DNA of 37,240 bases from a virus (taxonomy: Duplodnaviria; Caudoviricetes), in IMG/VR virus record IMGVR_UViG_3300044843_000038, positions 1-37,240 of that record; one strand, written 5' to 3'. A program made the position numbers and the translations under genes. Below, piece by piece: positions 10,682-37,240 of this stretch; position 1 is the first letter of the stretch; every line of letters begins with the position of its first letter. The notes under the pieces are model-generated. The model was not told the origin of the DNA. It saw nothing but the letters and a program-made list of their open reading frames with translations, and did no database searches.

Positions 10682-10842
10682 GCCATATCTCCTGTCATGT
10701 CGATTTCTGTTTCTTGCAAGGTCTTGGTTGCCAACTTCAAATCTTGCAAAAGAATCCGCAACTCTCGGCTGTGGACAATCACATAGTCGTTTTCTTCTGC
10801 CAGCTTGTGTAGCAGTTTGTATGCTCTTTCTTTCTCGTTCAT
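10678..10842 (-). CDS. Hypothetical protein (54 aa)
   Basis: ATGA-coupled at both ends. Confidence 0.7.
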   Translation of the reverse strand: MNEKERAYKLLHKLAEENDYVIVHSRELRILLQDLKLATKTLQETEIDMTGDMA

Positions 10843-11201
10843 GCTGCCCTCAGCTTCTCTGAGATCCTTGCCTTCCAAGAGTTCCAATCCTCTCCTGGCC
10901 TAGCTGGACAATTTACCTTTGCCGCCATCTCGGCAGTACCCTTCTCTGTAGCCCACCACACCACAACCTTCTCTTGTGTAGGTGCGATCTCTAGCTCATC
11001 TTCCCATCTTCCCTGGTTCAGCCAGGTAGCAGGATGCGGAATAAACTCCTGACCTGTTCCCTTCACCTGGTAATACTTGTTATGCGTCACCAGAGCCTCT
11101 ACAGCGGACTTTTGCTCACTAGGCGATAGTTTGTTCCATGCCTTCTGTGCAGCGCGTTTAGCGACCTTTCTTGGGTACTTACTCCAGAACTCTTCAAACA
11201 T
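10839..11201 (-). CDS. Replication-initiator C-terminal-like protein (no N-terminal HTH)
   Basis: FEEFWSKYPRKVAK..A.KAW...FIPHPATWLNQGRWEDE, typical of phage replisome-organiser C-termini; strong AGGAGG RBS. Confidence 0.8.
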   Translation of the reverse strand: MFEEFWSKYPRKVAKRAAQKAWNKLSPSEQKSAVEALVTHNKYYQVKGTGQEFIPHPATWLNQGRWEDELEIAPTQEKVVVWWATEKGTAEMAAKVNCPARPGEDWNSWKARISEKLRAA

Positions 11202-11269: not shown

Positions 11270-12085
11270 TTAATCCCCACAAAAGCAAGCCATAGCTTCT
11301 TCATCATCGCTAAACATGTCGGTTTGTTGCTCGCTGAACTTGAGCATCTCTGCATATCCTGCGCGATCTTTTCTGAACCTTGCCCCGCTCGGCTTCGATG
11401 CCAACGCCAACGCCTCCATCTTTGCCCACCAGATCGCTCGTTCTGGCTTTTCTTTAATGAGCGTAAATATTTGATTCGCAGGCTTTAGATAGCAAAGATC
11501 ACAATTGCCAGCGAGCGTTCTTCCTTGATAAGTCGGAAGGTTCAGATTAAAAGACTGCTTCGACCAAAATTTATTGACATCGTGAACAGTAATGCCAGCA
11601 GCAACCAACGGAGTGCGAGACCTGTCAATCTTTGCTGCGCGTCTGGCCTCATCCGCTCGTATACCGACCCAATCACTTGTTTCGTTGTGATCCCATTCAA
11701 GTGACTTTAAATACTTGTGAATGGTTCGGATCTTTAGTTCAGAAGTGCAAAATCTAGTCACTGGATTTGGCAAATAGCTGCGCTTAACAATCAAAGCCTC
11801 AAAAGGTTCGCCGTTCCTGCTTGCTGTTGAAAAATTGACTCGTTCAAATGATGGGTCTGCATTGCGATATTCGACCCAATGAATCTCTACGCCCCAGTGT
11901 TTCTCGCAGTCGCGCACAAACTCTAATGTCGCTTCCTCTTCCTTGCCTGTGTTTGCAAAACAAACAATCGCGTCATCAGGTAAACCATTGTTAGATTGCA
12001 AGACTCTCCAAAGCATGTAAGCACTAGTCCTGCCTCCTGAAAAACTAATGCAAGTAGGCTCGGTAATGCGGAAAGGATCAGACAT
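11270..12085 (-). CDS. PAPS-reductase-like (PP-loop) protein, 271 aa
   Basis: CISFSGGRTS, FANTGKE, CTSELKI, GIRADE, NCDLC; start revised to ATG 12085 with GAGG RBS. Confidence 0.88.
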   Translation of the reverse strand: MSDPFRITEPTCISFSGGRTSAYMLWRVLQSNNGLPDDAIVCFANTGKEEEATLEFVRDCEKHWGVEIHWVEYRNADPSFERVNFSTASRNGEPFEALIVKRSYLPNPVTRFCTSELKIRTIHKYLKSLEWDHNETSDWVGIRADEARRAAKIDRSRTPLVAAGITVHDVNKFWSKQSFNLNLPTYQGRTLAGNCDLCYLKPANQIFTLIKEKPERAIWWAKMEALALASKPSGARFRKDRAGYAEMLKFSEQQTDMFSDDEEAMACFCGD

Positions 12086-12097
12086 AGATATGTTCCT

Positions 12098-12315
12098 CGC
12101 AAAGACCCCCCTACCCCCAACGGGAGTAGAGAGAGATGGTTCCTCGGACGTTACCGTCATCTGCATGTGCCTTTCGACACCCCTCGGCTTGCAGATTCGA
12201 CCAGCCGCTGGATTCTTACGGATTTGCACCGGCTCACAAACATCGTGGCTTACCAGTAACCCTCTTCTTGTCAGCAGTCGGGATAACTCATTGCTTACGC
12301 GGACAGTACGGTCAG
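12098..12315 (-). ncRNA. Putative ~220-nt structured RNA
   Basis: GUGUC-GAAA-GGCAC and GACG-GUAA-CGUC GNRA hairpins, AUCUGCA/UGCAGAU helix, AGCCG/CGGCU helix, 3' G:U-rich hairpin. Confidence 0.65.
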
Positions 12316-12326
12316 CGCCAAAAGCA

Positions 12327-12435
12327 AAACCCCAGAACACTTAGGAGGGGCATGGCCCTTGGCATGGGCAATTACGCAGTCTCAGGAAGAAAGACCTTGT
12401 AACCACACAAGCCCCACCTAAACATTCTGGGGTTT
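12327..12435 (-). ncRNA. Cloverleaf RNA resembling P1 C4 / P4 CI antisense RNAs
   Basis: ~25-bp closing stem with three G:U pairs on the minus strand, enclosing three small hairpins whose loops match leader sequences. Confidence 0.7.
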
Positions 12436-12470
12436 ACTTCCTGGCTGCCAGTTGCCACGCTGACAGAACG

Positions 12471-12498
12471 ACTATATCACATCTCTATGACCTTACAA
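12471..12498 (-). promoter_or_regulatory. Sigma70 promoter with extended -10
   Basis: TTGTAA-N16-TATAGT with TG at the extended -10 position, immediately upstream of hairpin 12445..12466. Confidence 0.65.
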
Positions 12499-12827
12499 GT
12501 CCACCCTTCCTTTAGCTTGCCCCAGCCATGAACCTCTATCTTCCAGCCTGCTCTCAAGATAGCCGGAAGATGCTCACACTCGCTTATCTTCTTCACCCTA
12601 GCGTTGATATTGGCCCTGCTCGTTGTCTGCACCAGCAGCGTCTCTTCGTCTCTGAGGCAAAGTATGTCTCCGATACTGAAAAGGTCTTGTCGAATACGAG
12701 CCCAAGGGTTCCAGTGCTCGACTATTTGGCATAAATAACCTCGCTCCCTAAGTAAGGCTAGAGACCTCTGAGTAGGACTAACTGACGAACGGCGTGTTTT
12801 CTTGGTGTCAGTGGCAGAGATTGTCAT
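12477..12827 (-). CDS. PD-(D/E)XK-fold nuclease, Holliday-junction-resolvase-like
   Basis: LRERGY...DLFSIGDILCL...LLVQTT...AGWKIEVHGW. Confidence 0.65.
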   Translation of the reverse strand: MTISATDTKKTRRSSVSPTQRSLALLRERGYLCQIVEHWNPWARIRQDLFSIGDILCLRDEETLLVQTTSRANINARVKKISECEHLPAILRAGWKIEVHGWGKLKEGWTCKVIEM

Positions 12828-36729: not shown

Positions 36730-36963
36730 TCAAAAAATACGAAACCGTTTCTTGACCATCTCGCCTTCGGCGGCAATAGCCTCCAAACGGGCTTTTACCT
36801 GATTGACTGCGCGAATCGAGCTGTAAGCCTCTTCACGTTGGTCAATCTCATCAGGATTGCTTCGGATGATACGCTCGATGTTGTCTTTTTCCAACTCAGC
36901 AAAGACTTCTTGCAAAAACTCATCGCCGAGTAATGCCTTGGCTCGTTCCCATCGTTGCGTCAT
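36730..36963 (-). CDS. Small helical protein upstream of scaffold
   Basis: 77 aa, ATGA-coupled. Confidence 0.75.
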   Translation of the reverse strand: MTQRWERAKALLGDEFLQEVFAELEKDNIERIIRSNPDEIDQREEAYSSIRAVNQVKARLEAIAAEGEMVKKRFRIF

Positions 36964-37240
36964 AACAGGCTCTTCACTTTCTCTTTAGGAATCCTTGACT
37001 CGTTCAAGGCTTCTAGGAAATCTTCGCCGTACTTGTTTACAGCCTTCTTCCTGATGACAAACTCTCCGTACTGGAGCGCACCAAAACCATCGTCATCGTT
37101 GCTTGGGTTAGGCCCAAGCAGAGACTTAACCTTGCCGCCCTTTGCGCTACCTGTTTGCTGCGCTGCATCGTCTGCCGCTTGTTGCGCCTGCTGCGCTGCT
37201 TGTTGAGCCAACTGAGCGTCAGTCTTAGCCCAATCGTAGT
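36960..37240 (-). CDS. 3' part of the origin-spanning 526-aa protein
   Basis: In frame with 1..1427; AKGGKV...GPNP...GEFVIRKKAVNKYG..FL..LN. Confidence 0.88.
   Translation of the reverse strand, partial: YDWAKTDAQLAQQAAQQAQQAADDAAQQTGSAKGGKVKSLLGPNPSNDDDGFGALQYGEFVIRKKAVNKYGEDFLEALNESRIPKEKVKSLL
37114..37240. repeat. Terminal direct repeat (copy 2)
   Basis: Identical to 1..127. Confidence 0.95.

Follow-up and report, generated by a model that had tools for sequence, protein, structure and literature searches.

We identified an RNA gene of ~215 bases with three pseudoknots that is carried by many uncultured aquatic phages, and we are highly confident that it represents a real, uncatalogued structured RNA class. 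Given that this RNA occupies the spot in which relatives hold their initiator and origin, its likely role is to initiate replication of the phage genome through pairing with the DNA template from which it is transcribed. On the comparative evidence presented here, we lean towards an RNA-built replication origin acting in cis, in which the RNA would serve as R-loop primer in a manner similar to ColE1 RNA II, while belonging to another family.

The window, that is, the whole stretch of DNA analysed, is a complete phage of 37,240 bases with direct terminal repeats; a C-terminal gene segment at 1-1427 recurs at 36960-37240, as a circular assembly with a terminal repeat should show. The RNA element belongs to the early operon and is encoded on the minus strand, flanked by a 116-aa gene (12477-12827, minus strand), which had no family match and served as the anchor for finding relatives, and a PAPS-reductase-family cargo gene (11270-12085, minus strand) that is interchangeable or missing in relatives. 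The end of the upstream small gene holds a promoter-like site (12471-12498, minus strand; TTGTAA, 16 nt, TG-extended TATAGT) with a predicted start at ~12464, and 81 of 111 element loci have a -10-like hexamer 60-260 nt upstream, compared to 52 in shuffles (maximum 64). A consensus promoter scan revealed no plus-strand promoter. Next comes a leader RNA (12320-12465, minus strand) that, from the anatomy of c4 RNAs, we take to be c4-antisense-like: it has a long stem (12435-12327) and a U tract, and its inner segments are complementary to CAGGAAG (12443) and GGCAA (12456), both just upstream. The Rfam C4 model did not match this leader, which is a swappable module outside the core RNA, exchanged independently of it among close relatives and present in at least four unrelated versions.

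Further downstream, 10839-11201 (minus strand) encodes an initiator stub of 120 aa, in which the C-terminal domain of an O-type replication initiator stands alone, without the N-terminal DNA-binding domain. The stub matches phrog_270, a replication-initiator family, at positions 179-257 only, and its longer homologues have HTH_36, DUF1376, PF19808 or phage O N-termini. Its structure prediction was weak (pLDDT 70, pTM 0.38); neither Foldseek nor a sequence search matched the stub to a PDB entry, and its low-Z likeness to DnaD domains (3.5) and to SAP/LEM/Rho-N folds (3.5-3.9) was not counted as evidence. A split initiator built from the small HTH genes of the window was judged unlikely because the 106-aa one is also present in phages with a full-length initiator. 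GC skew, which the sequence-only reading had proposed for locating the origin, was calculated and tracks gene strand, and therefore cannot place an origin.

Positions 12311-12101 (minus strand) are one copy of a structured RNA family. The ~220-nt element first delimited by eye at 12098-12315 is real, but its conserved 5' end is 12311 rather than 12315. The family-defining 5' domain (12255-12311, minus strand; model R1 match 47.6 bits) comprises P1 (12305-02/12272-69) and P2, and the 63-homologue alignment places two pseudoknots in it (12310-08/12300-298, mostly invariant, and 12282-80/12262-60, minus strand). It is followed by a three-way junction, P3 (12208-12256, minus strand), with a variable hairpin and a T-loop-like hairpin, GG-UGCAAAU-CC (12231-12219). 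In L318, L326, L335, L360, L363, and L496, the P3 side hairpin carries variable inserts of 100-170 nt flanked by a conserved long inverted repeat. The next segment in the alignment (12159-12207, minus strand) combines a pseudoknot between CGGCU (12207-03) and AGCCG (12189-85) with helix P4 (AUCUGCA/UGCAGAU, 12196-90/12165-59) and the hairpin GUGUC-GAAA-GGCAC (12180-12167); both-side changes occur in 5/7 P4 pairs and 3/5 pseudoknot pairs. P5 (GACG-GUAA-CGUC, 12158-12147, minus strand) changes on both sides in all four of its pairs. The two hairpins, the enclosing helix P4 and the G-tract had all been recognized in the sequence-only reading and are present as described there. That reading had also given CGGCU two alternative AGCCG partners; both copies exist, but only the one at 12189-85 is a real partner, with four central pairs possible in 60/63 homologues, and the partner at 12234-30 was discarded since all five pairs can form in only 2/63.

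Past P5 lies X1 (CGAGGAAC, 12139-12146, minus strand), the RNA copy of a direct repeat that co-varies with X2 (see below), and the RNA then closes with a terminal hairpin (12101-12134, minus strand) made of a pyrimidine arm (12134-22), the G-tract GGGGGUAGGGGGG (12118-06) and UCUUU (12105-01), the likely 3' end or pause site; TCTTT is found at the end of this hairpin in 56/63 homologues. The G5-UA-G6 ending, originally taken to mark the element, holds for one subfamily only, and other members share the 5' domain but end differently. X2 (CGAGGAAC, 12092-12099, minus strand), the downstream repeat copy, is the predicted DNA landing site and can double here as the ribosome site of the next gene.

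A single-sequence fold was no better than shuffles (z of -0.07 for RNA and -0.03 for DNA), and support for the structure is therefore entirely comparative. Alignment A1 holds 63 of 70 non-redundant copies of the G-tract subfamily, with L496 (false 5' end) and six divergent copies set aside. In A1, 95.2% of cells pair across 55 proposed pairs, a value reached by 0/500 shuffles, and sliding partners by 1-3 columns cuts pairing to 40-49%, although this control leans in favor of the structure because it was drawn from A1 itself. Mutual information, RNAalifold and pair counts concur on the fold in these 63 copies, and 34 of the 55 pairs change on both sides. Two of the three pseudoknots have good double-change support, while in the 5'-most one two of the pairs are invariant and the third shows 2 double changes. 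Of 112 sense-strand loops, 80 are RNA-type tetraloops (GNRA/UNCG/CUUG), with ~5% expected by chance, and G-U pairs are abundant; the terminal hairpin, previously suggested to prefer the minus strand, is indeed more stable in that form in 61/63 homologues. Conservation of an overlapping reading frame, the alternative raised beforehand, was ruled out: codon positions across the 356-codon frame are equally conserved (0.78/0.78/0.77), length differences are not multiples of 3 in 42/63 homologues, and 50/63 have no open sense frame.

Rfam 15 contained no family matching the element at gathering or E-value thresholds, in agreement with the initial suggestion of a novel structured RNA. Pattern scans gave estimates of at least 390 and at least 210 stretches in viral contigs and at least 420 in metagenomes (stretches, not genomes). 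The first 5' pattern matched mostly by chance, and copies were kept only if the P1 stem was present; 86 of 116 G-tract matches fit the 5' expression, and the remaining 30 were taken as members by eye. The 166 distinct copies form 52 clusters, all with the 57-nt 5' domain and differing in the 3' half. BLAST against GenBank phages and PLSDB plasmids returned nothing real, so that a cultured carrier is not known, and homologue L319 had no real match among 72,556 plasmids. One integrated copy was detected in a Sulfuritalea MAG contig (L435), and other genome matches were short MAG contigs. No description of this RNA was found in the literature, including motif searches of four supplements of Fremin 2023 (PMC10690425); it might be an unnamed entry in the alignments of that study or in those of Weinberg 2017.

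The genomic position of the RNA points to replication. Relatives have the same promoter followed by one of two cassettes: either a short int-alpA leader and a full-length DUF1376 initiator holding iteron-like repeats, or a c4-like leader and the RNA, followed by the initiator stub with or without cargo in between. Of 80 loci located through the upstream gene as anchor, 15 were too short for classing, and among the rest the RNA was found in 0/28 with a full-length DUF1376 initiator and in 33/37 with a stub; given that anchored loci are close kin, this split reflects few independent cassette swaps. The remaining four stub loci have an unrelated ~230-nt non-coding element instead. Iteron-like 8-mers occur 3-4 times in the full-length initiator genes and are absent from the window region. 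The neighbours of 113 non-redundant element loci included no N-terminal initiator domain, two weak matches being judged spurious. Other observations concern the slot itself. In L016, L025, and L080, the int-alpA RNA (RF02996) leads the cassette of the full-length DUF1376 initiator. In L041, L049, L062, L077 (L049:636-871), and L145, further unrelated non-coding fillers of ~230 nt, without Rfam match, lie upstream of the stub. The Betaproteobacteria-1 RNA takes the same slot in L151:2013-2210, L156:177-380, and L158:2175-2375, where conservation extends ~75 nt beyond the Rfam model and covers a GGCGAA word that is repeated.

Whole genomes gave a similar picture, with a single RNA copy in 41/42 chosen carriers and none in 8/8 initiator controls. 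The 41 carriers comprised 17 with a stub, 14 with a primase, 3 with a DnaB-type primase-helicase, 1 (G007) with a full initiator and 6 with none of these; PolA was found in none of the 41, DUF1376 was missing from 40/41, and a full-length phrog_270 match was obtained in 0/41, although these searches are blind to unknown initiator families and short HTH frames occur in carriers. G039, G041, and G042 (L595-L597), three of these six, are 95-99% complete and have the RNA and no detected initiator, primase, DnaB or PolA; their early regions encode RecE, RecT-like, SSB, RusA and anti-restriction genes, and the scanned proteins had recombination functions only. G023 is likewise a near-complete RNA carrier in which no initiator, primase, DnaB or PolA was detected. 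The exceptions are G007 and L580, in which the RNA occurs alongside a full-length initiator and a DnaB-type helicase; L580 was the one locus with the RNA, 2.4 kb downstream, among 37 fetched for a full-length initiator. In G007:12035-12090 (L594), promoter, c4-like leader and RNA form an antisense cassette behind the terminase gene (terL). Copies outside replication modules also lie before a major capsid gene (L369) or, in L305, L188, and L256, within an element with ParA and capsid genes or beside virion-like genes.

The 3' part of the RNA holds two further signals. First, the G-tract side of the terminal hairpin is invariant across the 63 homologues while its partner strand toggles between C and U only, in 9/10 pairs, which argues for a role of the G-tract beyond the hairpin; nearest-neighbour sums, which speak to plausibility only, put the RNA:DNA hybrid of the G-tract ~8 kcal/mol ahead of the DNA duplex in stability. 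Second, the RNA contains a 5-8-base word (X1) that is repeated immediately beyond the G-tract hairpin (X2), the two copies changing together, and columns 12146/12099, 12144/12097, and 12142/12095 co-vary by identity and not by complementarity. The 5-base core of X2 recurs upstream in 63/63 copies at a spacing of 43-59 nt in nearly all, X1 equals X2 in 18/18 variant classes better than cross-matches do, and ~ten separate joint changes were counted by hand on a tree built without those columns. In a held-out set found by the 5' motif alone, the repeat was present in 41/42 copies (of 44 rows, 42 are covered by this count) compared to 2.1 in shuffles, and in 28/29 new copies, including new variants. 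The template strand under X2 always has the complement of X, and a 6-base Watson-Crick complement was absent from 107/107 RNAs; therefore, X1 probably pairs with template DNA. An RNA-RNA switch is also possible given that wobble-tolerant complements of X are common in these RNAs (5-mer in 82/107). Sister subfamilies without the G-tract have a weak repeat signal (5.58 vs 5.29 of 8).

The X words look like ribosome-binding sequences, and X1 and X2 could instead be alternative partners or twin protein sites of an RNA that regulates the early operon in cis. As an attenuator or put-like antiterminator, this RNA would decide at the terminal hairpin whether transcription continues into the cargo and replication genes. 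Such a role would suit an RNA that follows a promoter and c4-like leader and ends in a hairpin with UCUUU, in a slot where loci with a full-length initiator carry their own leader RNA (int-alpA). However, a start codon follows X2 in only 10/96 copies, too few for a ribosome site to explain X2 in general, the downstream genes vary freely, and regulation would leave the loss of the initiator N-terminus and iterons and the invariant G side unexplained. We thus consider this explanation unlikely, though the best of the alternatives.

Metatranscriptomes provided contigs near-identical to the locus in five runs (run labels X1-X5, distinct from the repeat copies), all within 12100-12451. Two RNA-run contigs, one of them from a diverged relative, end at 12100/12101 without a loose end, and none passes 12100, while a run of unrecorded type continues across it; runs X12 and X13 were not counted, as their identical contigs had conflicting DNA/RNA labels. 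Because the contigs are low-depth, reveal neither strand nor ends, and come from runs chosen with this region, they give a weak hint of a transcript covering leader and RNA and ending after UCUUU. The same confinement would be expected of a free trans-acting RNA (a ribozyme, protein sponge or scaffold, for instance for the initiator stub), as would the ornate fold with three pseudoknots and the presence in the same slot of Betaproteobacteria-1, an sRNA in Rfam. Nevertheless, a trans-acting RNA would not be expected to match a word probably located downstream of its own 3' end, and the stub is missing from over half of the carriers, making this option distinctly improbable.

We are still more doubtful that the structure works as single-stranded DNA, as a displaced-strand primosome site or single-strand origin for which transcription merely opens the duplex. 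This would suit the replication slot, and comparative searches pick up single-stranded DNA motifs too, according to PMC5737381; yet the RNA-type tetraloops, many G-U pairs, T-loop-like motif and contigs in RNA libraries favor RNA. Finally, that promoter, leader and RNA travel together antisense behind terL in G007 might suggest a dispensable mobile cassette moving with the stub gene by recombination, which is very hard to reconcile with strong compensatory conservation, the presence of just one copy, and genomes in which no other origin system is visible.

For the RNA-primed origin that we favor, we infer a course of events from the observed fold, strand, repeat co-variation and exclusion pattern. 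Host RNA polymerase would read through the c4-like leader, the RNA would fold and display X1, and the polymerase would pause or stop at UCUUU, past the G-tract. The terminal hairpin could then exchange partners, such that the RNA G-tract pairs with the C-tract of the template and X1 with template DNA at X2, and the released pyrimidine arm could hold the displaced strand. The primer might be the RNA 3' end or a product of RNase H cutting within the R-loop, after which helicase loading may fall to the initiator stub, to a phage primase-helicase or to host restart proteins. The P4 immunity RNA gates the P4 replication operon, and the c4-like leader could similarly gate primer synthesis. The origin proposed in the sequence-only reading thus gains partial support: initiator exclusion, the invariant G-tract and the co-varying direct repeat speak for it, but two genomes hold both systems. 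L580 and G007 count against it, as do the out-of-module copies, the sister subfamilies lacking the G-tract, the few independent swaps, and the primase or primase-helicase encoded by 17/41 carriers, which could therefore prime without the RNA.

Known systems offer partial parallels. Lambda O-type initiators contain internal iterons; the RNA sits at the operon position of lambda O, and the stub is homologous to the O-type C-terminal domain, with DNA-binding domain and iterons gone here. T4 R-loop origins prime from an origin transcript, to which the proposed phage RNA primer can be likened, and we know of no need for a covarying RNA fold at T4 origins. ColE1 RNA II is ~550 nt long, and a finer model of its priming involves pairing of a G-tract with a C-tract. 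The phage RNA, in contrast, is ~215 nt long, has three pseudoknots, is carried by tailed phages, has an RNA/DNA repeat that varies among relatives and has upstream control that is c4-like in look; no sequence or Rfam likeness to ColE1 RNA II or RNA I was found. According to PMC6317783, ColE1 has a G-rich stretch upstream of the origin, an R-loop and RNase H. The phage RNA likewise has a G-rich stretch, as a sequence feature, immediately before its presumed start point; further likenesses would be a promoter-driven transcript (here a promoter-like site) and independence from a DNA-binding Rep. Mitochondrial CSB II (PMC3488243), which points to a quadruplex version of the model, similarly has two G runs, on transcript and non-template strand alike, close to a transcript end, but forms an RNA-DNA hybrid quadruplex, while the phage G-tract has a conserved hairpin partner. 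The plasmid motifs ARRPOF, PAGEV, and GEBRO are similar in length (223-349 nt) and differ in their hosts and in being on plasmids rather than phages; ARRPOF, found in a region replicating without a rep gene (PMC5737381), comes closest among orphan motifs linked to Rep-free replication. Betaproteobacteria-1 (RF02932), listed as sRNA, shares the slot upstream of the stub and is unrelated in sequence and fold. The Rfam covariance models of these four motifs did not match the phage RNA.

A bolder proposal, which we advance tentatively as a possibility, is an RNA-guided origin: the folded RNA would replace the initiator DNA-binding domain, pair with both strands of its own DNA (X1 with the template, the pyrimidine arm with the displaced strand) and prime from its own end; several unrelated RNA classes, including Betaproteobacteria-1, would serve as origins that can stand in for one another, and some tailed phages of 34 kb would need no replication protein of their own. 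If the origin reading is right, tailed phages can trade a protein initiator for an RNA, and ColE1-type priming would reach beyond small plasmids to aquatic phages of a widespread group. RNA-DNA recognition could be probed in a one-step compensatory test through the co-varying X1/X2 word, and the slot logic gives a testable function to orphan motifs such as Betaproteobacteria-1. Even without an origin role, these phages carry a compact, well-supported three-pseudoknot RNA class missing from Rfam.
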